Below, piece by piece: positions 42,295-60,877 of a stretch of DNA of 64,000 bases. The DNA lies in the NCBI GenBank assembly GCA_017435905.1, contig JAFSEB010000046.1, positions 1,186 to 65,185 on the forward strand, written 5' to 3'. This DNA is from Clostridia bacterium (GTDB lineage: Bacteria; Bacillota; Clostridia; Christensenellales; CAG-138). How positions within the stretch are numbered: the stretch's first letter is position 1; each line of letters starts with the position of its first letter. The position numbers were made by a program, and so were the translations under genes. The notes under the pieces were generated by a model. The model searched no databases. It saw only the letters and a list, made by a program, of their open reading frames with translations, and was not told the origin of the DNA.

Positions 42295-42324
42295 AGACAA
42301 GGCAGTTTTTGCCTTGTCTTTTTT
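42295..42324. terminator. Bidirectional terminator
   Basis: AGACAAGGCA-gtttt-TGCCTTGTCT flanked by an A-run and a T-run. Confidence 0.8.
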
Positions 42325-42335
42325 GTTTGTGTTTC

Positions 42336-43034
42336 TTATTCTTTTACTTTCACGCCGGCGAATTTGAGCGCCGCTTCCGCCAGCACACGGGTGGGATCCA
42401 CCACCGGGTAAGGCAGCTTGTAGTCATCAAAGGCGATGGGCAGCTCCGTGCAGCCGAGCACAAAGCTTTCCACACCCTCTTCGAGCATGCTGTCAAGCAG
42501 GGCGCAGAAGGGTGCGGTGTCAAAATCCATGTTGCCGGCCTTGACGCCATCGTAAATGACGCCCATTACCAGCTTCTGGTGCTCCGCATCGGGCTTGATG
42601 ACCTTCACGCCGTGCTCCTCAAAGAGCTTTTCGTAAATGCCCGTGTTGATGGTGCCGTCGGTGGCAAGAAGGCCCACGGTCTTGATGCCCCGGCGGTCGA
42701 TCTCCTCCGCCGTCAGCTGCAGCATGTGCAGGATGGGCAGGCTCGTTGCCGCCTTCACGCCATCATAGAAGAAGTGCGCCGTGTTGCAGGGCATCATCAG
42801 CACATCCGCACCGGCACGCTCCAGCGTCCTTGCGGAGGTTGCAAGGGCAGGAATGGGGTTTTCGCCGCCGGAAAGAATGGCAGCGGTACGGTCGGGGATC
42901 TCGGTATTGCTGTCAATGAGCACACGGGGATGACCCTGATCGGAAGAAACATCCGCAAGGAGCACGATCTTGCGGAACAGATCCGCCGTGGCAAGCGGCC
43001 CCATGCCGCCGATGATACCGATTGTCTTTTTCAT
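42336..43034 (-). CDS. Aspartate/glutamate racemase family protein
   Basis: MKKTIGIIGGMGPLATADLFRKIV...MPCNTAH...LGCTELP (two catalytic Cys motifs). GGAAGGAA RBS before the ATG at 43034. Confidence 0.85.
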   Translation of the reverse strand: MKKTIGIIGGMGPLATADLFRKIVLLADVSSDQGHPRVLIDSNTEIPDRTAAILSGGENPIPALATSARTLERAGADVLMMPCNTAHFFYDGVKAATSLPILHMLQLTAEEIDRRGIKTVGLLATDGTINTGIYEKLFEEHGVKVIKPDAEHQKLVMGVIYDGVKAGNMDFDTAPFCALLDSMLEEGVESFVLGCTELPIAFDDYKLPYPVVDPTRVLAEAALKFAGVKVKE

Positions 43035-43057
43035 ACTGTTTTCCTTCCTGTTGAAGA

Positions 43058-43080
43058 GCCGGGGCGCAAAGCGCCCCGGC
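43058..43080. other. GC-rich stem-loop between the DcyD-like and racemase genes
   Basis: GCCGGGGCGC-aaa-GCGCCCCGGC, with no clear U-tract. Confidence 0.5.
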
Positions 43081-43098
43081 CTGTTTGTGTTGATGCTG

Positions 43099-44076
43099 TT
43101 ATGCTTCCACCACGTCTTCGGGATCGATGGCAAAGAGGCTGGCTGCGCCGCCGCTGTGCAGGAACACAATGTTTTCGCCCTCTTTGATCTCGCCCTTCTC
43201 GCACATATCGAGCAGGCCGGCGAAGGTTTTGCCGGTATAGACGGGGTCCACCATGATGCCTTCCTTCTGTGCCATCAGCTGAATGGCAGCAAGGCCTTCT
43301 CTGGAGGGCATGGCATAGCCGGCGCCGTAATAACGGCGAACGTCCACATCCTCCCTGGTGATGGAAACGTCCACGCCAAGGATCTTGGCGCACTCGTTCA
43401 CAAGCTCTTCGGTGATCTCTTCAAAGGGATCGTCGCACACGGCAATGCCGGTGACCTTTGCGCCCTCGCCATACAGCATGGTGCCAAGCAGGATACCGCC
43501 AAGGGTGCCGCCGCTGCCGGCGGTGCAGATCACACGGTCGATCTTCACGTTTGCGGCCTTCGCCTGCTCAAAGATCTCCTTTGCGCAATCCACATAGCCC
43601 ACGGTGCCAAGGGGCACGCTGCCGCCCACGGGGATCAGGTAGGGCTTTTTGCCTGCTGCACGGAGTTCCTCCGCCAGCTTATCCATTTCCTCATAAACCA
43701 CATCGTAGGAAGGGGTATCCACAAAGCGGACATCCACATCCATCAGCGCCTCAAGGAGAAGGTTGCCCTTGCGGCCCATGACGCCGCGCTTTTTGAGCAT
43801 CAGGATGGGTTCCATCCCCAGCATGCGGCAGCAGGCCGCAGTCAGCATGGCATGGTTGGACTGGGCACCGCCGGTGGTGATGACCACATCACAGCCCTGT
43901 TCCTTTGCATCTGCCAGCAGGTACTCGAGCTTTCTGACCTTGTTGCCGCCAAGGCTGACGCCGGTCATGTCATCACGTTTGATGAACACATTGCGGCCGA
44001 TGGCAGCGCTGACGTTGTTGAGCTTATAGAAGGGAGTCGGAAGCTGTGCAAGGGGGATACGGGAAACCTGATTCAT
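43099..44076 (-). CDS. PLP-dependent D-cysteine desulfhydrase / ACC deaminase family enzyme
   Basis: TPFYKLNNVS...IKRDDMTGVSLGGNKVRKLEYLLADA. Its start overlaps the upstream stop (TAATG). Confidence 0.8.
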   Translation of the reverse strand: MNQVSRIPLAQLPTPFYKLNNVSAAIGRNVFIKRDDMTGVSLGGNKVRKLEYLLADAKEQGCDVVITTGGAQSNHAMLTAACCRMLGMEPILMLKKRGVMGRKGNLLLEALMDVDVRFVDTPSYDVVYEEMDKLAEELRAAGKKPYLIPVGGSVPLGTVGYVDCAKEIFEQAKAANVKIDRVICTAGSGGTLGGILLGTMLYGEGAKVTGIAVCDDPFEEITEELVNECAKILGVDVSITREDVDVRRYYGAGYAMPSREGLAAIQLMAQKEGIMVDPVYTGKTFAGLLDMCEKGEIKEGENIVFLHSGGAASLFAIDPEDVVEA

Positions 44077-45344
44077 TATTTCACCTCATCAAGACGGGGC
44101 AAGCCCAGGAAATCAAAAGTAGCAAAGTAATCCTTGGTGGTTTCGGCACGGCGGATGAGCTTCACGCTGCCATCCTCACGGAGAAGGAGCTCGGCGCTGC
44201 GGAGCTTGCCGTTGTAGTTGTAACCCATGGAGAAGCCGTGGGCGCCGGTATCGTGGATGGCGATGATGTCGCCGATCTCGATCTCGGGCAGCATGCGGTC
44301 GATGGCAAAGCGGTCATTGCTCTCGCAGAGGGAGCCGGTGATGTCGTAAAGATGATCGCAGGGCGCATCTTCCTTGCCAAGGACGGTAACATGGTGGTAA
44401 GCGCCGTACATGGCGGGACGCATCAGGTTTGCAGCGCAGGCATCGCAGCCGATGAAGTCCTTATGGGTCTTCTTCTCATGGAGGACGGTGGTCACAAGGG
44501 TGCCCACGGGGCCGGTCACATAGCGGCCAAGCTCGGTAAAGATGCGGGGCTTGATGTTGGTGCCGGCGAATGCCTTTTCGTAGGCTTCCTTGACCTTATC
44601 GCCAACGAACTGGATGTCGGTCTCGGCATCTTCGGGACGGTAGGGGATGCCAACGCCGCCGGAAAGGTTGACGAAGCCGATCTTGATATCGAGCTCTTCG
44701 CTCAGTTCCTTGACGACCTCAAAGAGGAGCGCCGCAAGGGTGGGATAATACATGTTATCGATGTTGTTGGAGGACAGGAAGGAGTGGATGCCGAATTCCT
44801 TCACGCCCATTTCCTTCAGCTTACGCATACCCTCGGTAAGCTGCTCACGGGTGAAGCCGTACTTTGCTTCTGCCGGGTTGCCCATGATCTGGGTGCCGAT
44901 CTTGAACTCACCGCCGGGGTTGAAACGGCAGGAGATGACCTCCGGGATGCCGCCGTGCTTGGCGAGAAAGTCGATGTGGGAGATGTCATCAAGGTTGATG
45001 GTGGCGTTCAGGCGGCGTGCATACTCGAAATCCTCGGCAGGGGTAGCGTTGGAGGAGAACATGATGCCATCGCCGGTGATGCCCACGGATTCGCTCAGCA
45101 TAAGCTCTGCGTAGCTGGAGCAGTCCATGCCGCAGCCCTCTTCCTTCATGATCTGCATGAGGACGGGGTTGGGGCATGCCTTTACGGCATAGTACTCACG
45201 GTAGCCTTCGTTCCAGGAGAAAGCCTTCTGCAGCGCACGGATACGGGAGCGCAGGGCTTTTTCGTCATAGATGTGGAAGGGAGTGGGGTACTCTTTGATG
45301 ATCTCGCGGATCTGGGCCTCGTTGTAGGGAAGGGTCTTTTTCAT
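44076..45344 (-). CDS. Orn/DAP/Arg decarboxylase family 2 enzyme (diaminopimelate decarboxylase-like)
   Basis: YYAVKACPNP (PLP Lys), GSLCESNDRF, GAHGFSMGYNYNG. Confidence 0.8.
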   Translation of the reverse strand: MKKTLPYNEAQIREIIKEYPTPFHIYDEKALRSRIRALQKAFSWNEGYREYYAVKACPNPVLMQIMKEEGCGMDCSSYAELMLSESVGITGDGIMFSSNATPAEDFEYARRLNATINLDDISHIDFLAKHGGIPEVISCRFNPGGEFKIGTQIMGNPAEAKYGFTREQLTEGMRKLKEMGVKEFGIHSFLSSNNIDNMYYPTLAALLFEVVKELSEELDIKIGFVNLSGGVGIPYRPEDAETDIQFVGDKVKEAYEKAFAGTNIKPRIFTELGRYVTGPVGTLVTTVLHEKKTHKDFIGCDACAANLMRPAMYGAYHHVTVLGKEDAPCDHLYDITGSLCESNDRFAIDRMLPEIEIGDIIAIHDTGAHGFSMGYNYNGKLRSAELLLREDGSVKLIRRAETTKDYFATFDFLGLPRLDEVK

Positions 45345-45369
45345 TGATTTTTCTCCGTTCTATGCAAAA

Positions 45370-46758
45370 TTAAATTTCTTCGTGAGAAAGCACATTGAAG
45401 ATGCGCTTGTATTCGGGGCCGGTCAGACCGCGGTCTTCGTATTCCACTTCGCCTGCCTGATTATCGTAGGGATCCTTGCGCCAGTGGGTCTTCGGCGGAT
45501 CGAAAGCCGCCTGGAACTCACGGTTTGCCACCATGCGGTAGGGCTCAAGGTTGCCGAAGTAGTGCTGCCTGCGCTTCTCGTTATGGTTGCGGTATGCGCT
45601 GCCGCCGAAGGAGGGATCCGCATACATCCAGCCATGGGGGGCAATGTAGATCTGTACCCAGTCATGCATGCCGGCATCTCCGGGCTCCACATAAAGGCCG
45701 CTCTGCCAGCGTGCAGGGATGCCTGCGCAGCGGCAAAGGGTGATGAGCAGCAGTGCCTGTACGCCGCAGTCGCCGCGGAAGTTGCGTGCGCAGCTTTCGG
45801 CAATGTTTTCAAGGCCGAAGTATTCACGCATGAAGGAGTACTTCACCTTGGTGGTCACGAAATCGTAGAAGATGCGTGCCTTTTCAACGGGGTTCGTCAC
45901 GCCCTCGGTCAGCGTTTCCACAAGGGAACGGATGTAGGGAGTGAAGACGATGTGGGGTGCGATCTCCTCCGTATGGAAGGTGGGCTGTACCGCATTGGGC
46001 ACGATCTTGGCGGGGTCCACATAGGGTGCTTTGTGCACATAGGAATATTCCACCCAGAATTCGTGGTTCTCCTCCGTCACCTCTTCCCAGTAAACGGTGC
46101 GCTGCAGCGCATCTTCGGGGGCGATGTAAGTGGGTTCGGAAGAGAAGGCTTCAAAGCGGATCTCGCTCTGCTGGTCGCAGGCGGCCGGGATCGGCACATG
46201 CACACGCACAAGCTTGCCCTTCTCGAAGTATTCATCCTTGATGCGGACGCCTGCATGGATGCGGATGCGGCAGGTCATTTCACCGTTTTCACGCATCAGC
46301 CTTGCGCTGCGGTCGAGGATGCCCTCCTCGCCTTCCTTGGCGTTGTCTTCGCCGTCCACATGGCCCTTGTCCACGATGCCCGCACGCTTGGCAAATTCCG
46401 CATTGGTCTTGATGAGCGTGCCGTAAAAGGCGTCGAAATAATGGGGCTCGCCATTGATATAGATCCAGTCGATCTTGTTGTCGTCCACCATTTCATCGAA
46501 TTCTTCTTCGGTGAAATCCGCAATGGCTGCACGGATCTTTGCAAGGGCGGTCTCCCTTGTGTAGGAGTAATCATCCGGCAGGCGCAGGATCATTTCCCTT
46601 TCGCAGATCAGGCAGGCACGGAGTGCTTCCGGAATGTCCGTTGCAAGGTGCTTATCGATCAGGCGCACGGCACCTTCGAAATCGCCCCAGGTCTTCCTGC
46701 GAAGAATGTCCTCCGGCAGGCCCACATTGAGGTGCTTGAAGTTGCTGTTGATGTTCAC
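45370..46758 (-). CDS. Transglutaminase-like (Cys-His-Asp) domain protein, cytoplasmic
   Basis: GDCGVQALLLITLCRCAGIPARWQSG...GMHDWVQIYI...YADPS. No signal peptide. GTG start with an AAGGAGGG RBS. Confidence 0.75.
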   Translation of the reverse strand: MNINSNFKHLNVGLPEDILRRKTWGDFEGAVRLIDKHLATDIPEALRACLICEREMILRLPDDYSYTRETALAKIRAAIADFTEEEFDEMVDDNKIDWIYINGEPHYFDAFYGTLIKTNAEFAKRAGIVDKGHVDGEDNAKEGEEGILDRSARLMRENGEMTCRIRIHAGVRIKDEYFEKGKLVRVHVPIPAACDQQSEIRFEAFSSEPTYIAPEDALQRTVYWEEVTEENHEFWVEYSYVHKAPYVDPAKIVPNAVQPTFHTEEIAPHIVFTPYIRSLVETLTEGVTNPVEKARIFYDFVTTKVKYSFMREYFGLENIAESCARNFRGDCGVQALLLITLCRCAGIPARWQSGLYVEPGDAGMHDWVQIYIAPHGWMYADPSFGGSAYRNHNEKRRQHYFGNLEPYRMVANREFQAAFDPPKTHWRKDPYDNQAGEVEYEDRGLTGPEYKRIFNVLSHEEI

Positions 46759-46808
46759 GGTTCAGGCCCTCCTTTTTTGTTATTGGTGTTTGTTTCCGGC
46801 TTCAGCGA

Positions 46809-47633
46809 TCAAAAAATGGAACCGACCGCATTGATGCTCTTGGCAAGATCATCACGGTACAGGGGATGACCGGGGATGAGGCTGTTGAGCACAACGCCAT
46901 CGCTGCCGGCACGGCTGGTGGAATGGATGTACATGCCATCGCCAAGGTACATGGCAACATGGCCGGGGAAGAAGAGAAGGTCGCCCTTCTTCATATGGGC
47001 ACGGTCGATGGCGTGGCAGGGGAAGCCTTCACGGATGCTGGCGTTGCGGTAGATCTTCACACCGTTGAGCAGGTATGCGGTGCCCACAAGACCGGAGCAA
47101 TCGATGCCGCAGGGAGTCTTGCCGCCCCAGCGGTACTGGACGCCCATGTACATCTTCGCAGCTTCGCAAACGTTGTTGCGGAACTCTTCTTCGCCGGCGG
47201 AAGCTTCTTTGTAGTAGTTGCCCAGCTGGTTCTGGCGCACAAAGCCTTCACGGCCGTCAGCAAGGCGTACCTTCGCCCAGCCAAGAGGCTTTTCGGGATC
47301 CGCCACATACTCAACGAGGGCGCCGCGGCAAAGGGTGATGTGCTTGGAGAACTTCACGCCGTCGCCCATCTGGATGTCCGCAAAGGCAGCCCATACACGG
47401 CGCAGGTCGGCCTGTTCCCACTTTTCGCAGGCTTCATCATCCATCAGCAGATGGCAGCCTTCCACGTAGGTCACGTAGTTGTAGGGAGTGCGGATCTTAT
47501 AAAAACCGTTTTCCGCCTCTTCCAGGATCTCTACGATATGGCCGTACCAGCCTTCATCATCGGGTTCGCAGAGGGGCTTGGGTTCGCAGAAATAGGGAGC
47601 GATCATAGAGATGATAATTGCACGTTTGGACAT
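46809..47633 (-). CDS. Cytoplasmic SH3b-NlpC/P60 peptidase, YkfC-like (gamma-D-glutamyl-L-diamino acid endopeptidase family)
   Basis: GIDCSGLVGTAYLLNG catalytic Cys, GHVAMYLGDGMYIHS His, SH3b-like GWAKVRLADGREGFV. No signal peptide. Confidence 0.8.
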   Translation of the reverse strand: MSKRAIIISMIAPYFCEPKPLCEPDDEGWYGHIVEILEEAENGFYKIRTPYNYVTYVEGCHLLMDDEACEKWEQADLRRVWAAFADIQMGDGVKFSKHITLCRGALVEYVADPEKPLGWAKVRLADGREGFVRQNQLGNYYKEASAGEEEFRNNVCEAAKMYMGVQYRWGGKTPCGIDCSGLVGTAYLLNGVKIYRNASIREGFPCHAIDRAHMKKGDLLFFPGHVAMYLGDGMYIHSTSRAGSDGVVLNSLIPGHPLYRDDLAKSINAVGSIF

Positions 47634-47801
47634 GGTTATTTTCTCCTTTTTTCAGTCTGTATTTATCTTACCAAAGCAACAAAAAGACCGCAACCCGCCC
47701 TTACACAGCTGCAAAGATTTTTTTGCGCTGCGCAAGGGCGAATATCAGTCTTTTATTGTTTTGTTCGGTTCCCTTTAGGGTTCATATGCGCTGACCGTTG
47801 T

Positions 47802-48743
47802 TTAGTCCTTCAGGCGCTCGCGGTATTCCGCAAGTTCCTTTTCGTTGCCCATGATGAAGTGGCCTTCTTCGATCTCGGTCCAAACCGGCTTATCCACGGA
47901 ATAGTCGTGCATGGAGGGATCGTAGGTCTCAAGCTTCTTCTGCTTTTCGGAGATGGGATCCGGCATGGGGATGGCGGAAAGCAGAGCACGGGTATAGGGA
48001 TGCAGCGGATGTGCAAAGAGCTTCTCGGTCTCTGCAAGCTCCACGATCACGCCCTTATGGATAACGGCGATACGGTCCGTAATGAAGCGCATAACGGAAA
48101 GATCGTGAGCGATGAAGAGATAGGTAAGGCCGCGCTCCTTCTGCAGGGCGGAAAGGAGGTTGAGCACCTGTGCACGGATGGAAACGTCAAGAGCGGAGAT
48201 GGGCTCGTCCGCAATGATGAATTCCGGCTCCATGATAAGGCTGCGGGCAATACCGATACGCTGACGCTGACCGCCGGAGAACTCGTGCGGGAAGCGGCTG
48301 GCGAACTCAGGAAGCAGACCGACCTCGGAAAGCGCCTTGGAGACCTTTGCCTCACGCTGTTCCTTGGTAAGATCCTTCTGCACGTTCATGAGGCCTTCGG
48401 AGACGATGTAGTCTACCTTGGCGCGCTCATTGAGGGAAGCCATGGGATCCTGGAAGATCATCTGGATCTGCTGGGTGACCCGCTTGTCGAGTTCACGGGA
48501 GATCTTGCCGTTGATCTTCTCGCCCTTGAAGATGACTTCGCCGGCGCTGGTGGGGTTGATGCGGATGATGGCACGGCCGATGGTGGTCTTACCGGAGCCG
48601 GATTCGCCCACAAGGCCGAAGGTCTCGCCCTTGTAGATGTCGAAGCTGACGCCCTTGACCGCCTTGAAAGGCTTGCGCTTGCTGCCGAAGGTCACTTCAA
48701 GGTCTTTGACAGAAAGGAGGACTTCACGGTTGTTGTTTTCCAT
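47802..48743 (-). CDS. Opp/Dpp-family ABC ATPase (OppF-like), canonical length
   Basis: [29 protein letters not shown]. Its start overlaps the upstream stop (TAATG). Confidence 0.9.
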
Positions 48744-49804
48744 TATTCTTCGCCTCCGTCTTCAATCAGTTTTGCACCGCGGATCTTGCGGATGTTCTTG
48801 AGGGATGCCGGGGGTTCCACCTTGGGTGCACGGGGATCGAGCAGCCAGGTACGCGCCTTATGGGTGGGGCTCACCTCAAAATACGGCGGGCGGTGCAGGA
48901 AGTCGATCTTGAGCGCCTTGGGGTTACGGGGAGCAAAGGCATCGCCGCGAACCTTGTTGAACAGGTTCGGAGGAGTACCTTTGATGGAGTAAAGGTCTTC
49001 GCCCTTGATGCCAAGCTGCGGCAGGGAGCTGAGCAGCGCCCAGGTGTAGGGATGCTGCGGCTGATAGAACACCTCATCACAGGTGCCGATCTCCACGATG
49101 TCGCCGGCATACATGACCGCAATACGGTCCGCAACGTTGGCGACCACGCCGAGGTCGTGGGTGATGTAGATGGTGGTCAGCTGATACTTCTTCTGCAGCT
49201 CACGGATGAGGTCCAGGATCTGTGCCTGAATGGTAACGTCAAGCGCAGTGGTGGGCTCGTCGCAGATGAGGATCTTGGGGTTACATGCCATGGCGATGGC
49301 GATAACGACACGCTGGCGCATACCGCCGGAGAACTCGTGCGGATACTGCTTATAGCGGCGTTCGGGCTCCTGAATGCCAACGTCGGAAAGGATCTCGATG
49401 GCCTTCTTCCTGGCAGCCTCACCGGAAAGATCCTGGTGGAGCCTGAGGGCTTCTTCGATCTGCCAGCCAACGGTCTTCAGGGGGTTCAGGCTGGTCATGG
49501 GGTCCTGCATGACCATGGCAACTTCCTTACCGCGGATCTTGACCCATTCCTTTTCGGTCTTGAACTTGGCAAGGTCCATGCCGTTGTAGATGATCTCACC
49601 GCTGTCCACCCAGCCGTTCTTATCGAGCAGGCCGATGAAATTCTTGGTGAAAACAGACTTGCCGGAGCCGGATTCGCCCACGATGGCAAGGCTTTCGCCC
49701 TTGTAAAGATCAAGGGAGATGCCGCGGATGGCATGGAGCACCTGACCGCGGAGGCTGAACTTGACGTTAAGGTCTTTTACGGACAAAATGACTTCGCGTT
49801 CCAT
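48743..49804 (-). CDS. Opp/Dpp-family ABC ATPase (OppD-like), canonical length
   Basis: [49 protein letters not shown]. Confidence 0.9.
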
Positions 49805-49819
49805 AATGTTAAGACCTCC

Positions 49820-52446: not shown

Positions 52447-52571
52447 TTTTGCTTCTCCTTCAATTTTCGATAAAAAAGACAGTAAAGATCAGTAAAACGA
52501 TAAGATTGATAAGCTCGAAAAAGGGCTCTACCCCGCAAAGACAGAGCAGAGCCGCTTCTTTTGAATGGTTT

Positions 52572-52591
52572 GGGGGGCGGTAAAGCCCCCC
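52572..52591. other. GC-rich stem-loop in the oppA2-oppB2 spacer
   Basis: GGGGGGC-ggtaaa-GCCCCCC. The T-run lies on the plus strand only, which is antisense to the operon. Confidence 0.5.
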
Positions 52592-52629
52592 TTTTTATAA
52601 GCAGCTTAGCTTATTGGAAAGTGTGTGGC

Positions 52630-54753
52630 TTATTCGGCAGCGCCGCCGTTGAGCCAAGCTTCATACTGGGCGTCGTACATATCCATGCTCATGGCAGTGG
52701 CATATACGTGCTGGCCCTTATAACGGCTGGTGGCCTGACCCATCATGGCGAACTGGCCTTCGAAGCCGTTGAGCTTGGTAGCCTGATAGGAACCGCCGGA
52801 GATGAACATCGGGACAACGATGGCGTGGTCAATGTAGAAGGCTTCGGCAGCGGCGAAGGCTTCGTAACGCTCATCGATATCGGTGACGCAGGTACGGGCG
52901 TGCTCGCAGAGAGCAAAGTACTCGTCGATCAGAGCGTGAGTTTCAGCAGACTTGGTATCCTTGAACACACGGTAGCCGGTGCTGTCGGGTACGAAGAAGT
53001 TGTAGCTCTGCTCAGGATCATGGAAGGGATCTGCCCAGGTCTCGGGATCCATGAAGTCGGCGCCCCAGTTGAGCTCCTGGATAGCATAGTTACCGTTGCG
53101 GCGGGTCTCGTTAAGGAAGCTGGTACCGGCATATTCAACGACGATGATATCGATGAAGTCGGCGCCGAGGAGGCCTTCAAGCTGCTGCTCGAGAACGACG
53201 GAGGCGTTGCCCCAGGCAGAGGTGGAGGGGTTGTAGTTGATGGGAGCCTGGATCGGGAAGACAGCGCCGGCAGCGGTCAGTTCTTCCACAGCCTTGGCCT
53301 TGTACTCAAGGGCAAGAGCCTCGTTGAAGGATTCGCCGGTGGTGTACTTGGCAAGCTCGCCGTACATGGTGAAGTCCTTACCGTTGTTGACGGAGAAGCC
53401 GGTGGGGGTCACGCAGTTGATCTTGTGGACCTCGGGATCGTCGCCGGGGTAACGGGCGGCAATGTAGTTGGTCCTGTCGATTGCGTGGAAGATGGTCTTA
53501 CGGAAGTTCTCGTTGTTAACGGCGATCACCCAGTTGTCGGGGTTGTAAGCTTCATCGAAGGTGGGTTCGAAGTTGAAGCCCATGAAGTAGGAGTAGTCAC
53601 CGGTAACACGGCTGGTGGAAACCATCTGGCTCTTTTCGGGATCGGCCAGCCATTCGGCGGCGATATCGGAGCTCAGGCCGGTACCGTCGATCTCACCGCG
53701 GAGGAAGAGCTCGGGGGAGATGGTGGCAGATTCGGTGTTGTAGGTCTGCTCGATGCGCTCGATGTAAACATGCTCGGCATCCCAGTTGTTCTCGTTCTTG
53801 GTGTAGATGCGCTTGGACTGGGGCTCAAAGGTGGAAAGGATGTAAGCGCCGTTGAACCACATGCTGTAGTTGTCCATACCGAAGTTTTTGCCAAGCTCCT
53901 CAAGGAGAGCAGCGGGGGCGGGCCAATAGGTACCGAACTGGAGAACGGTGAGGAAGTAAGGACGAACCTTTACGAGGTGATACTCGAGGGTGTAGTCGTC
54001 AACAGCAACAACGCCGACCTGGTCGGGGGTGACAACGGGAACTTCGACCCACTCGGTGTACTTCTCGGTGGCGTCGTCCCAGCTCCTGCCTTCCCAGATG
54101 ACGCCGTTTTCGTCGATGACAGCATCCTGATCCTTGCCGGACTCGGTGCCCTTTTCAACGGCGGCATTAGCATAAGCGGTGTAGTAGATGGACTCTTCAG
54201 CGTTTACGATCCAGCCTTCCATGAGGTAGGAGTTGGAGCACTCGGTGGTGGCGTCGCAAACATAGCGGGCAGCGGCTACGAAGTCATGCGCGGTAACGGG
54301 ATCCTTCTGGTTGCCGTCTGCATCGTACCAGTACTGGCCTTCACGGAGATGGAAGGTCCAGGTGAGGCCGTCGGGGCTGACTTCCCAGCTCTCGGCAGCG
54401 CTGGGAACGATGTTGCCGTAAGCGTCGTTCTCCACGAGGGAGTCAACGCAGTTTGCACCGACAACGAGTTCCGCAGTGGAACCGGAGTAGAGGTAGTTCA
54501 TGGTGTCGAGTTCGCCGGAGTACAGGGCACGGTAAACCTGCTCTTCAGCAAATTCGCGGCCGTCGGGGCCGGTGGTGGCTTCAGGCTCTTCGGAAGCTTC
54601 GGGGGCTTCGGAGGCCTCGGGGGCGGTGGAAGCTTCGGGAGCGGTGGAAGCTTCGGGTTCGGGAGCAACTCCAGGTTCGGTGTTGCCGCCGCAAGCAGCA
54701 AACACGCCCATGACCATCACGATGGCCATCAGGAGGGCAAGAAGTTTCTCCAT
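52630..54753 (-). CDS. Family-5 (Opp/Dpp-type) solute-binding lipoprotein, 707 aa
   Basis: MEKLLALLMAIVMVMGVFAAC(21)GG lipobox, APEPEASTAPEASTAPEASEAPEASEEPE linker, large SBP body. AAGAGGAGAG RBS before the ATG at 54753. Confidence 0.85.
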   Translation of the reverse strand: MEKLLALLMAIVMVMGVFAACGGNTEPGVAPEPEASTAPEASTAPEASEAPEASEEPEATTGPDGREFAEEQVYRALYSGELDTMNYLYSGSTAELVVGANCVDSLVENDAYGNIVPSAAESWEVSPDGLTWTFHLREGQYWYDADGNQKDPVTAHDFVAAARYVCDATTECSNSYLMEGWIVNAEESIYYTAYANAAVEKGTESGKDQDAVIDENGVIWEGRSWDDATEKYTEWVEVPVVTPDQVGVVAVDDYTLEYHLVKVRPYFLTVLQFGTYWPAPAALLEELGKNFGMDNYSMWFNGAYILSTFEPQSKRIYTKNENNWDAEHVYIERIEQTYNTESATISPELFLRGEIDGTGLSSDIAAEWLADPEKSQMVSTSRVTGDYSYFMGFNFEPTFDEAYNPDNWVIAVNNENFRKTIFHAIDRTNYIAARYPGDDPEVHKINCVTPTGFSVNNGKDFTMYGELAKYTTGESFNEALALEYKAKAVEELTAAGAVFPIQAPINYNPSTSAWGNASVVLEQQLEGLLGADFIDIIVVEYAGTSFLNETRRNGNYAIQELNWGADFMDPETWADPFHDPEQSYNFFVPDSTGYRVFKDTKSAETHALIDEYFALCEHARTCVTDIDERYEAFAAAEAFYIDHAIVVPMFISGGSYQATKLNGFEGQFAMMGQATSRYKGQHVYATAMSMDMYDAQYEAWLNGGAAE
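54568..54690 (-). repeat. Tandem coding repeats for the APEAS linker. Shares 23-24-nt identical stretches with the linker of the other SBP gene (11335-11465)
   Basis: Both loci contain TTCAGGCTCTTCGGAAGCTTCGGG and GGTGGAAGCTTCGGGAGCGGTGG (plus-strand reading). Confidence 0.75.
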
Positions 54754-54834
54754 GTTTGTTCTCTCCTCTTTTATTTTTTTCGCTGCCGTGGGGGACGGCA
54801 ACATAAAATGCACGCAATGGAATGCGCTTATTGT

Positions 54835-54863
54835 ATTTTATAATCTTACGGAAAATAATTCAA
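54835..54863 (-). promoter_or_regulatory. Candidate promoter of the Opp2 operon
   Basis: Minus strand reads TTGAAT (54863-54858), 17-nt spacer, TAAAAT (54840-54835). Confidence 0.5.
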
Positions 54864-54889
54864 CAGCTTTTCCGACATATGTTTATTAC

Positions 54890-54933
54890 AAAAAAGAAAT
54901 AAACGTGTATACAAAATACCTGTATACACGTTT
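54890..54933 (-). terminator. Rho-independent terminator after the DmpA-like gene
   Basis: Minus strand reads AAACGTGTATACA-ggtatttt-TGTATACACGTTT followed by ATTTCTTTTTT. Confidence 0.85.
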
Positions 54934-54953
54934 ACTTCATGTTTGTCTTTCCA

Positions 54954-56012
54954 TTACGGACATTTATGGCTGTTTTCAATATTCTGCATCCTTTCGGCCA
55001 GGGAAAGGCGCACATGGCCCGCTCTGCCCTTTGTGGTCTTCGCATGCAGCATGGAACTAATCACGGATTCCTCCACGCATTCGATCACCGCACGGAAGAT
55101 GACATCCATATCATCCTCGTAAAGGAGGCTGATGGTCTCCGCCTTGCCGCTGCCGTAATGGCTGAGCCTGTTGGCGGTGGTGAAGGCAAGGGCGATCTCG
55201 CCGCTGCCGTTGCCGCTGATGCTGCCCGTGCGGGCAAGACCGCTCTGGGCACGCTTTGCAGCCCTGCCAAGCTGCCTTGCGGAAAGGGGCGCATCCGTTG
55301 CGATGAGGATGATGACGCTGCCCTTATCCTGCTCCGCCTTGGCCTTTTCCGCCCGGTACATCCTTTCGCCCACCCTGTCGCCGCCGATGGCAAGATCCCT
55401 GAGGCTGCCGAAGTTGGTCAGAAGCAGCGTGCCGAGGGTGTATTTCTGCCCGTAAAGTTCAAACACACGGGAAGCGGAACCGATGCCGCCCTTGCAGGAA
55501 TAGCAGCTCATACCGGTGCCGGCGCCGACAGCGCCCTCTTCAAAGGTCTCCGCCGCCGCTTCGATGGCCTGACGGGCATGCTCTTTTGTGACATGCAGAC
55601 CGCGGATATCACTCAGATGGCCGTCGTTGCACTCCATGACAACGGAGTTCACAGTGCCGGTGGAAACGCCGATATCCTCGTTCTGCTCCAGCATATACTC
55701 CACGAGTGCCGTGGTCACCGTGCCGACGCTCAGCGTGTTGGTCAGAAGGATCGGCGTTTCAAGGGTGCCAAGCTCCTGCACCTGCAGAAGGCCGGCGCTC
55801 TTGCCGAAGCCGTTGATCACATGGGCTGCCGCCACGCATTTATCCTGAAACATGTTGCCGCCGTGGGGGATGACCGCCGTTACGCCGGTGTTGATCTCCT
55901 CGCCCTGCAGCGTCACATGACCCACGCGCACGCCGGGAACATCCGTGATCAGATTGCGCTCACCGGGTTCCATATAGCCGAATTTGTAACCGTACTTTTT
56001 CTCAACGCCCAT
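54954..56012 (-). CDS. DmpA/BapA-family (peptidase S58, P1) aminopeptidase
   Basis: GPGNLITDVPG-like NLITDVPGVRVGH, NTGVTAV, GAGTGMSCYSCKGGIGSASRV. AAGGAG RBS before the ATG at 56012. The ORF-track N-terminal extension was rejected. Confidence 0.8.
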   Translation of the reverse strand: MGVEKKYGYKFGYMEPGERNLITDVPGVRVGHVTLQGEEINTGVTAVIPHGGNMFQDKCVAAAHVINGFGKSAGLLQVQELGTLETPILLTNTLSVGTVTTALVEYMLEQNEDIGVSTGTVNSVVMECNDGHLSDIRGLHVTKEHARQAIEAAAETFEEGAVGAGTGMSCYSCKGGIGSASRVFELYGQKYTLGTLLLTNFGSLRDLAIGGDRVGERMYRAEKAKAEQDKGSVIILIATDAPLSARQLGRAAKRAQSGLARTGSISGNGSGEIALAFTTANRLSHYGSGKAETISLLYEDDMDVIFRAVIECVEESVISSMLHAKTTKGRAGHVRLSLAERMQNIENSHKCP

Positions 56013-56196
56013 GCATCCATCTCCTTGATATGAAAAAATAGATATATCCTGCGGCTGCTGTGCAGCCATGCTTTTCCATTTATTATCATAACCCGAACAT
56101 GGCGCTTTTGCAACACGGAACGTTTCGGGACATGATTCATATAAAAAAAGCCCGTCCTGCGCTGCGGCGGGAAGGGCGATTGTCTTATTCTGCCGG

Positions 56197-57132
56197 TCAT
56201 TTCTGTTTCGTGACCTCGTGGATGCCCACAAGGATCAGCACGGCGCCGATGAAGATGGCGACGGTGAGCGGCTCATCGAGGAAGATGACGCCGGCAAACA
56301 TGGAGCAGAGCGTTGAAAGCGAACCGAAGGAGGAATATTTGATCACGGTCATGCTCTTCACGGAATAGTTGACGAGCAGGTTTGCGCCGATGGAGCAGAA
56401 CACGCTGAGCACCAGCATGGGGATCAGGAACTGCGGATCTGCAAGGGGCGATACAAAGGCTTTGATGTCGAAGCCGTTGGAAACAAGCGCCATGATCACA
56501 TAGCCGACAGCGGAAGCCGCCAGCACGAAATAGCTGCGCTCGAAGGAGCTGAAGCTTTCCGCCGTTTTGCGGTTCACGGTCTTATAGGCACCGGAAACCA
56601 CGCAGGTGACGATCAGGCAGGCAAGGCCGATGGGCTGAATGATGCCGAGGGAGCTGCCCGAAAGCGTCATCACGATCACGCCGATCACGGGCAGGAAGCA
56701 GAACAGCACCTGCCGCCTTGAAGGGTATTCCTTCAGGAAGAGCAGCGCAAACAGGATGGACAGCACCGGCGATACCGCCAGCACCACGCCGGAAAACGTG
56801 GTGTTCGTATAGTAGACGCTGTAGCTTTCCGTGATGTAGTAGATCAGCTGCAGCACAACGAGCAGAATGGCAGGCCCCCACTGCTTGCCCTTAAAGGATA
56901 CATGTACCCTTTTTGTGAGCACGAGCACGGTCATGATCAGCGTCGCCACCAGGAAGCGCCACGCCAGCAGCACATCCGGATCCGCCACACGGATAGCCAT
57001 CCTTGTGAACAGCAGGCTGAAGCCCCAGATGATGTGCCCAAGGTAGGCGCACAGCATGGCAATGCGGTATTTTCTTTTTTCCGCTTTTTCGGTTTCCTGT
57101 TCCGAAAGCGCAGGGATATCTTTGGTCTCCAT
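56197..57132 (-). CDS. EamA/DMT-family transporter
   Basis: About 10 TM helices in two EamA-like halves. ATG at 57132 chosen. The start is uncertain. Confidence 0.75.
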   Translation of the reverse strand: METKDIPALSEQETEKAEKRKYRIAMLCAYLGHIIWGFSLLFTRMAIRVADPDVLLAWRFLVATLIMTVLVLTKRVHVSFKGKQWGPAILLVVLQLIYYITESYSVYYTNTTFSGVVLAVSPVLSILFALLFLKEYPSRRQVLFCFLPVIGVIVMTLSGSSLGIIQPIGLACLIVTCVVSGAYKTVNRKTAESFSSFERSYFVLAASAVGYVIMALVSNGFDIKAFVSPLADPQFLIPMLVLSVFCSIGANLLVNYSVKSMTVIKYSSFGSLSTLCSMFAGVIFLDEPLTVAIFIGAVLILVGIHEVTKQK

Positions 57133-57301
57133 GATAGCACGGTCCTTCCCTTTCAATATCCCCTACATTGTATTTCCACCGTGTATGATTGTAAAATTCC
57201 TTTTTATCAAAAATCTTATTTATATTTATCAATAACATAGATGGGCAGGATGTTTTTTTCGCCGTTCTTCGCCGGCTTGCCACACTTTTTTTGTATTATG
57301 C

Positions 57302-57333
57302 GAAAAACCGCCTGCCGGTCTCCCGGCAGGCGG
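57302..57333 (-). terminator. Terminator after the desulfoferrodoxin gene
   Basis: CCGCCTGCCGG-tctc-CCGGCAGGCGG followed on the minus strand by TTTTTCG. Confidence 0.8.
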
Positions 57334-57363
57334 TGCTGCATTTCTTTGTTTCTGTCCGTTTTG

Positions 57364-57747
57364 TTATTTGACTTCGCTCATCCACAGCCCGTGGAGATTG
57401 CAGTAAGCAAAGACCGCTTTGGGCTTCTCATCGCCAAGGTTGAACACTGCCTTGGGCGCTTCGCCGCTGACGAGTGCCCTGCGCAGTTCGCCTTTCTCCG
57501 TTTCCACGAACACCCACTCAATGTAGTGTTCCGGGATCATCGGATGATCCACCGCACCCACATTCACTTCAAGAACGCCGTTTTCGTACTTCACCACGGG
57601 AAGGTGCTTTTCGCCGCTCGCTTCCACTGTGTTGGGAACAAGCTCTTTCATCTTTTCGCCGCAGCAGAAGACGGGTACCTTTGAATCGTGGATCTTGGTG
57701 ATGATATTGCCGCAATGGCTGCAGATGTAGAATTTCGTTTTGATCAT
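57364..57747 (-). CDS. dfx: Desulfoferrodoxin (2Fe superoxide reductase)
   Basis: N-terminal desulforedoxin-like CSHCGN...FCCGEKM, then EKHLPV...HPM...C..H centre II motifs, 127 aa. Confidence 0.9.
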   Translation of the reverse strand: MIKTKFYICSHCGNIITKIHDSKVPVFCCGEKMKELVPNTVEASGEKHLPVVKYENGVLEVNVGAVDHPMIPEHYIEWVFVETEKGELRRALVSGEAPKAVFNLGDEKPKAVFAYCNLHGLWMSEVK

Positions 57748-57880
57748 GGTTTTTGTCTCCTTCCTTTTCCTTCAAGTCTCTTTATCTTTTTGTCATGCTC
57801 CTCTTTCCTTTGGGAGCCGTCTCTCTTTTGTTGTGCTTATGATAGCAGTTTTCCAACTGCGTTTCCGTGATAATGTCACA

Positions 57881-58627
57881 CTACGTTCTTGCCATGCCGT
57901 CCACGCTGAGCACCACGCCCGTGATATAGGAGGCTTCCTCCGATGCAAGGAACACGAAGGCGTTTGCCACATCCTCCGGCTTGCCGAGGCGGCGAAGGGG
58001 GATACGGGCGATCATCGGCTCGATGACCTCTTTGGGCACAGCCTTCATCATATCGGTCTCGGTGATGCCCGGGGCAACGGCGTTGACACGGATTCCCTTT
58101 GGGCCAAGCTCCCTTGCAAGGGACACCGTCAATCCGTTCACGGCGAATTTCGATGCCGGGTATGCAAAGCCGCTGGGCTGGCCGGAAATGCTCACCATGG
58201 AGGAGGTGGAAAGAATGACCCCTTCCCCCTTCGCCACCATGCATTCGCTGGCGGCACGGGTGGCGTTGAACACGCCCTTGACGTTCAGATCCATGACCCT
58301 GTCGAAGGTCTCCTCGGTGTATTCGGTGAAGGGCGTGCTTTCCGATATGCCGGCATTGTTCACAAGGATATCCACGCAGCCGTATTTCGCCGCCGTTTCC
58401 GCAAAGGCTTCCCGGACGGACTTCAGATTGGAAAGATCGGGGCTGATGCCCGCCACGGTGGCTTCCGGATACTTTTCCTGCAGCTTTGCCGCTGCGGCTT
58501 GTGCAGATTCCTTCGTGCTGGCGGTGAGGATGACGGTGGCACCCTCCTGCAGGAAGCGCTCTGCCGTTGCATAGCCGATGCCCCTGCTGCCGCCTGTGAT
58601 GATCGCTACTTTATCTTTTAACCTCAT
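57881..58627 (-). CDS. Short-chain dehydrogenase/reductase (FabG-like)
   Basis: TGGSRGIG, NNAG, YPASK. 248 aa. Confidence 0.85.
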   Translation of the reverse strand: MRLKDKVAIITGGSRGIGYATAERFLQEGATVILTASTKESAQAAAAKLQEKYPEATVAGISPDLSNLKSVREAFAETAAKYGCVDILVNNAGISESTPFTEYTEETFDRVMDLNVKGVFNATRAASECMVAKGEGVILSTSSMVSISGQPSGFAYPASKFAVNGLTVSLARELGPKGIRVNAVAPGITETDMMKAVPKEVIEPMIARIPLRRLGKPEDVANAFVFLASEEASYITGVVLSVDGMART

Positions 58628-58773
58628 ATCGGGTACCTCCGTTTGGCTGTTTTGTATTCTATGGTCATAGCATACCCGATTATTTCCCTTTCTTCCGTGA
58701 TGATGTTACGGAAAAAGTGCGAAAAACGACATAGCAGTTTTTCCTGCCGTGCCGAACGCACATTGCATTTACA

Positions 58774-59574
58774 TTACATAATAAACTGACCGCAGCGCAG
58801 CACTTCCATGAAATCATCGGACTCAAAGCGCACGGTGAGCGGATCGATGAGCCTGCAGCCCGGGTAGGCGGACATGCGTGCCGCCACCTTGTGCTCCTTG
58901 TAGGAGATCTCGAACACAAAGTGGTCGGGAAGCTCCGCAAGGGCATCGGAAAGATCCTGCCGGAGAGCTTCCTCCGCCGCAGCGCGGATCTTATCGCAGG
59001 CAACCTTCGGGTGCAGGCAGCGGATGGAACCGCCAAGACCGTCCTTCACAGCAACGGTCTTGAGTTTCGGGTGGATGCCCTGGCTGTCCTCGGTGAGCAT
59101 CTTATCGCCGGCGAGCATCACGGTGGGCACGCCCATCATGGCGCAGGCCCAGCTGTAAAGCAGGAACTCGCTGCACACCATGCCGTTGAGCCTGACGGAG
59201 GTGGACTGGGTGCTCTCCGTGTGGGAAAGGGGGTTGCCCTTGCGGCCGGCGGCACTGTGGTAGCCCACGAACATAGCGGCATCAAAGGTCTCATCGCAGC
59301 CGGAGGCCATGGAAAGAGGATCGCCCACCCAGTTGCGGATGAGCTTTGCGCACTCGGGCAGCTCGTTGATGTCGATGTTGATGCCGCTGCCGTGACCGTC
59401 CTTGATGAGGATCTCGGTGGCGCCGGCGGCAATGGCACCTTCGCAGGCAGCCTTGACCTCGGCGGTCATCTGCCTGCAGTGGGGCTTTGCCTGCGCATCG
59501 CTGAGGGTGCTGGTCTGGTTCCAGTATGTGGTCAGCGTGGTGCCTTCAATGTCGGCACTGATAAATACCTTCAT
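58774..59574 (-). CDS. M55-family D-aminopeptidase (B. subtilis DppA-like), copy 1
   Basis: MKVFISADIEGTT...DGHGSG...FVGYHSAAG..GNPLSHT. AAGGAGGAG RBS. Confidence 0.85.
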   Translation of the reverse strand: MKVFISADIEGTTLTTYWNQTSTLSDAQAKPHCRQMTAEVKAACEGAIAAGATEILIKDGHGSGINIDINELPECAKLIRNWVGDPLSMASGCDETFDAAMFVGYHSAAGRKGNPLSHTESTQSTSVRLNGMVCSEFLLYSWACAMMGVPTVMLAGDKMLTEDSQGIHPKLKTVAVKDGLGGSIRCLHPKVACDKIRAAAEEALRQDLSDALAELPDHFVFEISYKEHKVAARMSAYPGCRLIDPLTVRFESDDFMEVLRCGQFIM

Positions 59575-59584
59575 GGGCTCCTCC

Positions 59585-60382
59585 TTACAGGATGAACTGC
59601 ACGGCACGGAGCACATCCTCGAAATCCTTGGTCTCGAGCACCACGGTGCGGTCGCCCACAAGGCGGCAGCCCGGGAAGTAGGAGCGGCGCACCGCATCCT
59701 TATGCTCCTTGTAGCTGACTTCGAACACGAATTCTTCCGGCAGGGCGATCTTCGCCTCCGCAAGCTCTTCCTTCATGGCAGCTTCCGCCTGCTCACGGAT
59801 CAGCTTGCAGGAAAGCTTCGGGTTCAGGCAGCGGGTGGAGCCGCCGAAGCCGTCCTTCACCGCCACGGTGTGCAGTTTCGGGTGCAGGCCCTCGCTGTCC
59901 TCGGTGAGCATCTTGTCGCCGCAAAGAAGCACGGTGGGCACGCCCTTCATGGCGCAGGCCCAGCTGAAGAGCAGGAACTCGGAGCAGACCATGCCGTTGA
60001 GCTTCACGGAAGTGGTCTTGGTGGTAAAGGTATGGGAAAGGGGATTGCCGTTGCGGCCCGCTGCGCTGTGGTAGCCCACGAACATGGCAGCATCAAAGCT
60101 TTCGTCCACGCCGTCCGCCATGCCGAGGGGAGCGCCGCTCCAGCCGCGGATGACTTCCACGCACTCGGGCAGCTCGTTCACATCGAGATTGACGGCATAA
60201 TCATGGGCGTCGTTCACAAGGATGTAGTCCGCACCGGCGGCGATGGCGCCTTCGCAGGCAGCCTTGACTTCCGCAGTCATCTGCTTTGCGGCGGCAGCAT
60301 ACATATGGTGCCCAAGCTCGGTCTCATCCCAAAGGGTAGTAAAGGTGGTACCCTCGATATCGGCACTGATAAAAACACGCAT
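59585..60382 (-). CDS. M55-family D-aminopeptidase (DppA-like), copy 2 (tandem paralog)
   Basis: MRVFISADIEGTT...NDAHDYA...FVGYHSAAGRNGNPLSHT. Collinear with copy 1 over the full length. Confidence 0.85.
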   Translation of the reverse strand: MRVFISADIEGTTFTTLWDETELGHHMYAAAAKQMTAEVKAACEGAIAAGADYILVNDAHDYAVNLDVNELPECVEVIRGWSGAPLGMADGVDESFDAAMFVGYHSAAGRNGNPLSHTFTTKTTSVKLNGMVCSEFLLFSWACAMKGVPTVLLCGDKMLTEDSEGLHPKLHTVAVKDGFGGSTRCLNPKLSCKLIREQAEAAMKEELAEAKIALPEEFVFEVSYKEHKDAVRRSYFPGCRLVGDRTVVLETKDFEDVLRAVQFIL

Positions 60383-60595
60383 TTGAACGATCCTCCTGTA
60401 GATTTGGTTTACTTCTTCATTATCCGTATTTTACCATCCGAACACAAGCCCCATTTGTCGGTTTTTGCAACTTTCTTTCCAATGGGATACTTTTTCCCTC
60501 TTGAAAAAAACCGCACTTTGCAGCATGATTAACAGGATGCGCCCTTCCCCTTCCGGCCGAAGGCGCAGTATTTGAACAAAGAAAGGATATCCCCC

Positions 60596-60865: not shown

Positions 60866-60877
60866 AAATTCGAAAAA

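Follow-up and report, generated by a model that had tools for sequence, protein, structure and literature searches.

The window analysed here is a 64,000-nucleotide stretch of the genome of a Clostridia bacterium of the order Christensenellales (assembly GCA_017435905.1, contig JAFSEB010000046.1, positions 1,186 to 65,185 of the forward strand). Between positions 42336 and 60382 it carries a run of 16 minus-strand genes that encode peptidases, an Opp-type oligopeptide importer and enzymes acting on amino acids (Table 1). A first-pass annotation had read this whole run, together with the D-serine dehydratase gene dsdA nearby, as one 18-kb system for the salvage of murein peptides and D-amino acids. 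All 16 genes are present, with family assignments that match in Pfam and NCBIfam, and dsdA was found where it had been placed. The subject of this work is the part of the run that recurs in other genomes, called the module hereafter, and the transglutaminase-like protein (TGase) at its centre, as a candidate system for the import and catabolism of murein peptides.

The starts of five genes were moved inward from those of the longest open reading frames (S58 to 56012, M55b to 59574, the racemase to 43034, OppA to 54753 and EamA to 57132). The corrected starts match independent gene calls on identical contigs, where the OppA call is identical. Inspection of the translations reveals no signal peptide on the enzymes, and a lipobox on OppA. 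In the window, the start of the lyase gene and the end of the decarboxylase reading frame share one base.

Table 1. Genes and transcription signals of the cluster and its surroundings, in window coordinates
Feature	Coordinates	Strand	Basis
M55a, Peptidase_M55	59585-60382	minus	Pfam, 271 bits
M55b, Peptidase_M55	58774-59574	minus	Pfam, 265 bits
Short-chain dehydrogenase/reductase (SDR)	57881-58627	minus	Pfam/NCBIfam family match
Desulfoferrodoxin (Dfx)	57364-57747	minus	Pfam/NCBIfam family match
EamA transporter	56197-57132	minus	Pfam/NCBIfam family match
S58/DmpA-family aminopeptidase (S58)	54954-56012	minus	Pfam Peptidase_S58, 390 bits
OppA-type substrate-binding lipoprotein, 707 aa, lipobox VFAAC	52630-54753	minus	Pfam SBP_bac_5, 153 bits
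OppB permease	51505-52446	minus	Pfam BPD_transp_1 and BPD_transp_1_N
OppC permease, 562 aa	49820-51508	minus	Pfam OppC_N (residues 66-110), BPD_transp_1 (residues 377-559)
OppD ATPase	48743-49804	minus	Pfam ABC_tran and oligo_HPY
OppF ATPase	47802-48743	minus	Pfam ABC_tran and oligo_HPY
SH3b-NlpC/P60 cysteine amidase, putative (P60)	46809-47633	minus	Pfam NLPC_P60, SH3_3, SH3_16
Transglut_core protein (TGase), 462 aa	45370-46758	minus	Pfam Transglut_core, 73.8 bits
Ornithine/diaminopimelate (DAP) decarboxylase	44076-45344	minus	TIGR01048 lysA, 298.6 bits vs cut-off 297.9
DcyD/1-aminocyclopropane-1-carboxylate-deaminase-family pyridoxal phosphate enzyme (lyase)	43099-44076	minus	TIGR01275, 310 bits vs cut-off 289
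Asp/Glu racemase, cofactor(pyridoxal phosphate)-independent two-cysteine type	42336-43034	minus	TIGR00035, 235 bits; CuyB, 235.8 vs 190
dsdA	38422-39741		638 bits vs cut-off 246
Intrinsic terminator after S58	54938-54896	minus	20-bp stem and T run
Promoter-like site ahead of oppA	54863-54835	minus	after the S58 terminator, followed by the oppA ribosome-binding site
Terminator after desulfoferrodoxin	~57333-57302	minus	GC-rich hairpin and T run
Bidirectional terminator-like hairpin closing the cluster	42288-42326	both	18-pair stem

The two terminators that the first-pass annotation had named, after S58 and after desulfoferrodoxin, are genuine hairpin and T-run structures; the second was identified by eye and was missed by the terminator scanner. 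The best promoter-like match of the region lies ahead of eamA, 3' of the desulfoferrodoxin terminator, and S58 forms its own transcription unit in this genome.

Extent of the conserved module

The search for related loci was anchored on the TGase, which is the least characterised protein of the cluster and is encoded in its middle. At least 578 species-representative genomes encode a relative of this protein. From these, the best 80 loci, each with 10-kb flanks, were queried by tblastn with all proteins of the window as defined queries, and 86 related loci were used to test which neighbours are kept. In 19-20 of the 80 loci the genes follow an order designated type A, (S58)-(OppABCDF)-(P60)-TGase-DAP decarboxylase-(DcyD-like lyase)-(racemase), sometimes without Opp or P60; the carriers are uncultured gut/anaerobe species of Clostridia. 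The window itself is from an uncultured Clostridiales lineage of metagenome-assembled genomes, and the nearest species-level genome is SIG369, whose TGase is 95% identical.

Type A comes in several forms. The full form, in which Opp lies between S58 and P60, is found in loci L008-L010 and L087. A compact, Opp-less form of six genes, S58-P60-TGase-DAP decarboxylase-PALP-racemase, occurs in L089/L090. Four species have a form without P60 (L017, L018, L044, L063), flanked by an M42 peptidase and by NagA, which passes TIGR00221, and also by an M20 peptidase and a BadF/BadG-type kinase. S58 is linked to the module in 11 of the 80 loci, as well as in L087 and L089. The OppF stop overlaps the P60 start in L020, L067 and L072, and a stop-start overlap joins the decarboxylase and lyase genes in several type A loci. 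L084 lacks both racemase and lyase and L020 lacks the racemase, and this pair is therefore accessory to the core.

The conservation stops upstream of S58. Even a threshold of E<1e-5 brings up no relative of the M55 proteins, desulfoferrodoxin or EamA in the 86 related loci. L087, from the nearest other species (S58 80% identical), has genes for a metal ATPase, AraC and HxlR proteins and flavin reductases in the 10 kb upstream of S58. The M55-M55-SDR-Dfx-EamA block is upstream only in the species of the window, where it is stable across at least four assemblies. The genes dsdA, PsuG and a CPBP protease are nearby only in the three closest relatives (L007-L009), and this block is inverted in two of them.

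Because the upstream block and dsdA are kept only in the same species or its closest relatives, the functional unit is almost certainly 42336-56012, about 13.7 kb, instead of 18 kb; the 4.2 kb from 56197 to 60382 and dsdA are lineage-specific neighbours outside it. The linkage across genomes that the first-pass annotation proposed as a check on its 18-kb system is thus borne out for 42336-56012, where the same families recur in the same order in 19-20 species genomes, and not for the M55 pair, SDR, desulfoferrodoxin and EamA genes, nor for dsdA. Same-strand adjacency had stretched the unit by about 5 kb too far. The analogy drawn with the dppA-dppBCDE-ykfABCD locus of Bacillus subtilis likewise fails at dppA, since the M55 genes are not conserved with the module, and ykfA and ykfB are absent here. 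Both M55 proteins lie far under the NCBIfam DppA cut-off (143 and 123 bits vs 430).

Some features of the surroundings are worth recording. The G+C content is 0.52 at 56001-58000, compared to about 0.57 elsewhere; this interval covers the EamA/desulfoferrodoxin segment, which is outside the conserved part. A LysR-family reading frame immediately upstream of the M55 pair (60921-61724, minus strand) has the substrate-binding domain only and no HTH_1 match; it is called at 220-255 residues in other assemblies of the species, and is probably truncated or decayed. At the opposite end, a histidine-rich predicted membrane protein of 159 residues without Pfam match (41799-42278, plus strand) is convergent with the racemase gene, and it is kept beside PsuG in L007-L009. 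Searched with Rfam at the gathering threshold, the whole window contains only two T-box leaders, both unrelated and outside the cluster (13496-13744 and 34161-34380, plus strand, 95 bits each). The second is just upstream of an isoleucyl-tRNA synthetase-like gene (tRNA-synt_1 on identical contigs). At E<=1 over 42000-61500, Rfam returns sub-threshold noise only, and no riboswitch or leader.

The transglutaminase-like protein and its two genomic contexts

The TGase belongs to a large family of proteins of about 460 residues; a search of 90%-identity clusters gave 3574 relatives at E<=1e-10. It scores well above the cut-off of 23 bits for Transglut_core (PF01841), and its Cys-His-Asp triad of C331, H365 and D381 is conserved to at least 95% across 74 sequences. 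The AlphaFold model of the protein has a predicted local distance difference test score (pLDDT) of 90.4 and a predicted template modelling score (pTM) of 0.91. Foldseek matches this model, with a probability of 1.0, to 3isr, an uncharacterised "putative cysteine protease", and to the periplasmic domain of TgpA; eukaryotic transglutaminases are also among the fold matches. A profile search against the sequences of the Protein Data Bank (PDB) gave one marginal match, at E=0.01, which was disregarded. One source names a homologue "lasso peptide biosynthesis protein". This name was rejected: the PF13471 match is below the cut-off, and none of the loci has a linked gene for a cyclase or a precursor.

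A second context, type B, accounts for 51-55 of the 80 loci and has no overlap with type A. In 51 loci the TGase gene directly follows that of a DUF819 membrane protein. The other partners, on the same strand, are an enolase-superfamily epimerase (25 loci), DUF3870 (23), PepV (17) and an M19 dipeptidase (16), and a GltD-like NADPH oxidoreductase is additionally present in eight loci. The PepV protein passes NF005591 (486 bits vs 435). A representative of the epimerases scores 378 bits to YkfB of B. subtilis, the L-Ala-D/L-Glu epimerase (1jpm/1tkk), and includes the PFKTALR segment. DUF819 is a family of the cation:proton antiporter/anion transporter (CPA/AT) superfamily (PMC8396727). Loci L012, L019, L049, L054 and L068 are among those of type B, and Oscillibacter valericigenes (Sjm18-20, locus L049) is a cultured carrier.

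The type A and type B TGases form two clean clades in a neighbour-joining tree. At 98 positions conservation reaches 95% or more in each of the two, and at no position is there a fixed difference between them, so that the two are treated as isofunctional, which they apparently are from their sequences.

The TGase has no characterised relative, and its function must therefore be inferred from its context. It always directly adjoins the DAP decarboxylase in type A, and in type B it is adjacent or close to the epimerase. The enzyme encoded beside the YkfB/YcjG epimerase in Bacillus, Bacteroides and E. coli is the amidase that cuts gamma-D-Glu-meso-diaminopimelate (mDAP), either YkfC or MpaA (PMC2954226, PMC4600125). 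In the Clostridial type B operons, it is the TGase that holds this position beside the YkfB-like epimerase. The two neighbourhoods, one pointing to L-Ala-D-Glu and the other to mDAP, thus provide two independent links to the same molecule.

Enzymes of the TGase fold act through gamma-glutamyl thioesters, so that an attack on a gamma-D-glutamyl amide would be chemically natural. It is quite possible, although we would stop short of calling it probable, that the family is an unrecognised cytoplasmic murein-peptide amidase, either an isopeptidase for gamma-D-glutamyl-mDAP or a deamidase for amidated stem peptides. It would then play in Clostridia the part of MpaA and YkfC, to which it is not homologous, and would anchor two alternative salvage operons, of which type A would channel mDAP into lysine. 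The family is widespread, and counts thousands of protein clusters from metagenomes in addition to its members in at least 578 species genomes.

Partner proteins of the type A module

The best solved relative of P60 is 3h41, YkfC of Bacillus cereus (BcYkfC), followed by cyanobacterial and Bacteroides YkfC-type enzymes. The cysteine of its DCSG motif, the histidine of GHVAMY and the histidine of IHS(T) align with the catalytic Cys238, His291 and His303 of BcYkfC (PMC2954226). A tyrosine of the SH3b domain (PYNY) aligns, in a phmmer alignment, with Tyr80 of the Bacteroides enzyme BoYkfC (DDYTGWV, chain position 60 of 3npf), and is kept in 13 of 13 linked P60 homologues. In both solved enzymes it is part of an N-terminal SH3b domain and contributes to the S2 site (BcYkfC Tyr118, BoYkfC Tyr80).

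At a second position, P60 and all 13 linked homologues read YRNA, with an asparagine, where 3h41, 2hbw, 2evr and 3npf read PRD. The corresponding aspartate of BcYkfC, Asp256, has been described as essential for the recognition of L-Ala's free amine (PMC2954226); it follows the conserved Arg and neutralises this amine. In native DvLysin these two positions are Ala and Asn, and its A211Y variant, which has Tyr and Asn, has been reported to be an efficient recycling enzyme specific to stem peptides (PMC4600125). The Tyr and Asn combination of P60 is that of DvLysin A211Y. Despite the missing aspartate, P60 therefore probably works like YkfC, yet forms a subfamily of its own.

The decarboxylase passes the LysA cut-off narrowly; among solved structures, true DAP decarboxylases are nearest to it. 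The AVKA motif and the DAP-binding motifs ELGR, RPxxY and CES are kept, and two motifs are variant, FLSS for HIGSQ and GAHG for GAYG. These variants could have marked a special decarboxylase distinct from LysA. This idea was abandoned, as the variants also occur in homologues of about 66% identity that stand alone in housekeeping contexts (e.g., after smpB) and are named diaminopimelate decarboxylase. Because these stand-alone homologues share the variants and the motifs are kept, the protein is best described, from its sequence, as a LysA-type enzyme of the usual Clostridial kind that lies within the module. It is possibly the sole lysA of these genomes.

S58 clearly falls by sequence within the DmpA/BapA family of Ntn-type, self-processing aminopeptidases, with scores of 381 bits to Pyrococcus horikoshii PH0078 (2drh) and 183 bits to DmpA (1b65). 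Its segment NGSGEIALAF aligns with NGSGDIAVAF of PH0078; it may correspond to the Gly-Ser site of self-cleavage and of the nucleophile, Gly249-Ser250 in DmpA. S58 was not retained as an anchor past about 65% identity, as homologues of at most 63% identity are found in unrelated contexts.

The OppB permease matches NCBIfam Opp3B with 216 bits, under the 480-bit cut-off. In OppC, an insert of about 220 residues (residues ~110-330) separates the N-terminal transmembrane helix from the core of the permease. The insert is present in the close relatives L010 and L087 (OppC of 557-562 residues) and absent in the more distant type A loci L020, L033 and L084 (333-341 residues). A second Opp-type importer is encoded at 3564-11528 (minus strand), with a substrate-binding protein of 736 residues, permeases of 523 and 332 residues and ATPases of 582 and 441 residues. 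Several of its subunits have inserts, as in the Mycoplasma-type Opp models, which are also the best matches of the Opp proteins of the cluster.

Among NCBIfam models the lyase matches CuyA best, with 329.8 bits, under the cut-off of 450, and it passes only the broad TIGR01275 subfamily model. The motifs GGNK, SN and DPVYTGK, which contain the Lys, the Ser-Asn and the Tyr of D-cysteine desulfhydrase, are kept, and the protein is a probable D-specific beta-eliminating lyase. The closest solved relative of the racemase is the aspartate racemase of P. horikoshii (1jfl; 222 bits, about 50% identity), and both catalytic cysteines are kept. Its score with the CuyB equivalog and that with the generic asp_race model (235.0 bits) are about equal. 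A racemase beside a DcyD-family, D-specific lyase is the characterised architecture of CuyB/CuyA in Bilophila (PMC11193023). The lyase and the racemase form a translationally coupled pair. By analogy, the two may act in succession on a beta-substituted amino acid, as a single route of two steps, instead of each dealing separately with D-amino acids. In L089/L090, a sulfite-reductase-like gene (NIR_SIR and 4Fe-4S) and a rhodanese-domain pyridine-nucleotide disulfide oxidoreductase gene are found 4-6 kb upstream of the module (3367-5984, minus strand). Their presence is a weak hint at such a CuyB/CuyA-like reading of the pair.

Proposed murein-peptide catabolism and competing readings

On balance, and with modest confidence, we favour the view that the module imports and catabolises murein peptides. 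The Opp lipoprotein system would import L-Ala-gamma-D-Glu-mDAP, with or without D-Ala. In the cytoplasm, the gamma-D-glutamyl-mDAP linkage would be opened by the YkfC-like P60 and the TGase, the TGase being the partner that is always required and P60 adding a second specificity that is optional. The freed mDAP would be converted to L-lysine by the enzyme of the LysA clade, L-Ala-D-Glu could be split by S58, as a D-tolerant aminopeptidase, and the freed D-Glu (or D-Asp) would return to the L pool through the racemase. The DcyD-like lyase would remove some beta-substituted D-amino acid. In type B operons the sister TGase would perform the same first step, and the problem of D-Glu would be met by dipeptide epimerisation and a dipeptidase; in type A, S58 and the racemisation of the free amino acid would replace this epimerase-plus-dipeptidase route.

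The core idea of the first-pass annotation, an Opp-fed cytoplasmic unit that ends with the conversion of mDAP to lysine, survives in this scheme; it was the 18-kb extent and the dppA analogy that had to be given up. It is supported by the YkfC-like P60, by the linkage of the TGase to YkfB and a dipeptidase in more than 50 species, by the decarboxylase of the LysA clade, and by the NagA and M42 peptidase genes that flank the module in four species.

Several points weigh against this scheme. The specificity of Opp is not readable from sequence, P60 lacks the aspartate that defines the YkfC subfamily, and the PDB profile and fold searches gave no characterised close relative of the TGase. P60 and the TGase would be partly redundant. 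The window contains no LD-carboxypeptidase, no N-acetylmuramoyl-L-Ala amidase and no YkfB epimerase, and Pfam finds no MR_MLE or S66 match among the 16 genes of the cluster. The DcyD-like lyase has no obvious murein-derived substrate, and the racemase exceeds the CuyB cut-off and is paired with a lyase of the DcyD family, as in the sulfonate route of CuyB/CuyA. The decarboxylase may be a housekeeping lysA that sits here by chance. Finally, S58 and Opp are separate transcripts here, and so, probably, is the P60-to-racemase segment; no regulator or riboswitch uniting these units was found.

The main mechanistic alternative for the TGase, though an unlikely one, is that it deamidates amidated mDAP or D-isoglutamine, that P60 alone cuts gamma-D-Glu-mDAP, and that the decarboxylase (type A) or YkfB (type B) acts afterwards. 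P60 and the TGase would then have non-redundant roles, and glutamine deamidases do exist among TGase-fold enzymes. The constant place of the TGase beside the decarboxylase or around the epimerase would also fit: in many Firmicutes, amidation affects the very carboxyl group that DAP decarboxylase takes off, and epimerisation of the YkfB type requires a free alpha-carboxylate on Glu. However, type B loci and P60-less type A loci encode no other candidate to cut gamma-D-Glu-mDAP, so that the substrate imported there would have to be an already processed dipeptide.

It is improbable that the module is a general locus for oligopeptide uptake and amino acid metabolism, with no specificity for murein, in which Opp and S58 would serve ordinary peptides, lysA would be the housekeeping biosynthetic gene and the others would be loosely related enzymes of amino acids. 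Opp systems are indeed generalists, and the window encodes a second, similar one; the decarboxylase falls in the same clade as the stand-alone lysA of housekeeping contexts, and the more distant S58 homologues occur in unrelated surroundings. This explanation nevertheless accounts neither for the conserved cytoplasmic YkfC-like amidase, racemase and D-specific lyase, nor for the tight translational coupling, nor for the linkage of TGase, YkfB and dipeptidase in more than 50 species.

Still less credible is the degradation of sulfur-containing gamma-glutamyl peptides or of cysteate or cysteine peptides (glutathione-like, lanthionine), in which P60 and the TGase would be gamma-glutamyl amidases and a CuyB/CuyA-type pair would turn the L-amino acid into its D-isomer, from which pyruvate, ammonia and a leaving group would result. 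It draws on the CuyB score of the racemase, on CuyA as the best match of the lyase, on the retained Tyr that confers D-specificity, on the adjacency characterised in Bilophila (PMC11193023) and on the sulfite-reductase-like gene 6 kb upstream in L089/L090. Against it, the lyase scores 330 bits where CuyA requires 450, the racemase is closest to an aspartate racemase, and the window contains no sulfite exporter or reductase. It also leaves the DAP decarboxylase and the YkfB linkage unexplained, and the pair on which it relies, incomplete or missing in two type A loci, looks like an add-on and not like the core.

That the whole of 42336-60382 and dsdA form one murein-peptide and D-amino-acid supercluster, with the M55 proteins as equivalents of DppA, is very improbable: the genes do share one strand, an arrangement that is stable within the species, and the families are as stated, including M55, to which the D-aminopeptidase DppA belongs and whose gene heads the dpp operon of B. 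subtilis (PMC2954226), but, besides the distribution and the DppA scores reported above, desulfoferrodoxin is set apart from EamA by a strong terminator and a promoter-like site, another terminator follows S58, and SDR and desulfoferrodoxin have no role in peptide catabolism.

Under the murein-peptide reading, the module shares the logic of several known systems. As in dppABCDE-ykfABCD of B. subtilis, an importer of the Opp/Dpp family stands beside a cytoplasmic SH3b-NlpC/P60 enzyme, and stem peptides would be dismantled inside the cell. The Bacillus locus differs in having the LD-carboxypeptidase YkfA and YkfB, and a YkfC with the defining Asp in place of Asn; conversely, it has no TGase, S58, lysA, DcyD-family lyase or racemase, and its dppA has no counterpart conserved with the module. 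The MppA-Opp/LdcA/MpaA/YcjG/PepD route of E. coli has the same proposed steps, that is, import, cleavage of gamma-D-Glu-mDAP and disposal of L-Ala-D-Glu, and the type B operon parallels mpaA-ycjG and pepD (PMC4600125). The E. coli amidase MpaA is an M14 zinc enzyme, whereas the candidate here is a cysteine hydrolase of the P60 and/or TGase fold. In the window, the epimerase route would be replaced by S58 and a racemase of free amino acids, and mDAP would go to lysine via the linked decarboxylase.

BT1313/BT1314 of Bacteroides thetaiotaomicron, for which a recycling role has been proposed (PMC4600125), also belong to a gut anaerobe and place an NlpC/P60 stem-peptide amidase next to an epimerase of the YkfB type; the position of YkfC there, adjacent to YkfB, is taken by the TGase in the type B operons of Clostridia. 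The Bacteroides enzymes are periplasmic, with Tyr and Asp at the two diagnostic positions, whereas those described here are cytoplasmic, with Tyr and Asn in P60 and a TGase-fold protein as the constant partner. CuyB/CuyA of Bilophila wadsworthia (PMC11193023) likewise consist of an adjacent PF01177 racemase and DcyD-family lyase, and the Tyr of D-specificity is kept in the lyase of the window. The latter is, however, under the CuyA cut-off, the racemase is closest to an archaeal aspartate racemase, there are no sulfite-handling genes in the window, and the pair is inside a peptide-catabolic module.

From the known systems of murein-peptide use, the module differs in its TGase-fold hydrolase, in the use of S58 and a racemase in place of the epimerase route, in the embedded lysA, in the CuyB/CuyA-like pair, and in having neither YkfA and YkfB nor a conserved DppA. 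The first-pass annotation had remarked that the combination was not one recognised as described. In agreement with this, a search of the literature found no description of the module, and nothing that ties DUF819 and the epimerase, or DAP decarboxylase and peptidoglycan recycling, to a TGase-like protein.

Fragments of peptidoglycan, among them the tripeptide, iE-DAP and muramyl dipeptide, are major signals to the host through NOD1 and NOD2, and a shared nutrient in dense anaerobic communities. How the Clostridia that dominate the gut use peptidoglycan fragments is poorly known, because the E. coli enzymes are missing from Clostridia. The most interesting element of the module is the TGase-like family, as a candidate for the missing Clostridial murein-peptide amidase. 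If it is this amidase, thousands of proteins annotated as "transglutaminase domain-containing protein" gain a testable function. The type B operon supplies DUF819 and DUF3870 with a candidate context in the use of murein dipeptides or tripeptides. A lysA gene inside a module for uptake and catabolism would suggest that scavenged mDAP is turned into lysine, which bears on amino acid cross-feeding and auxotrophy in uncultured Christensenellales-like organisms.

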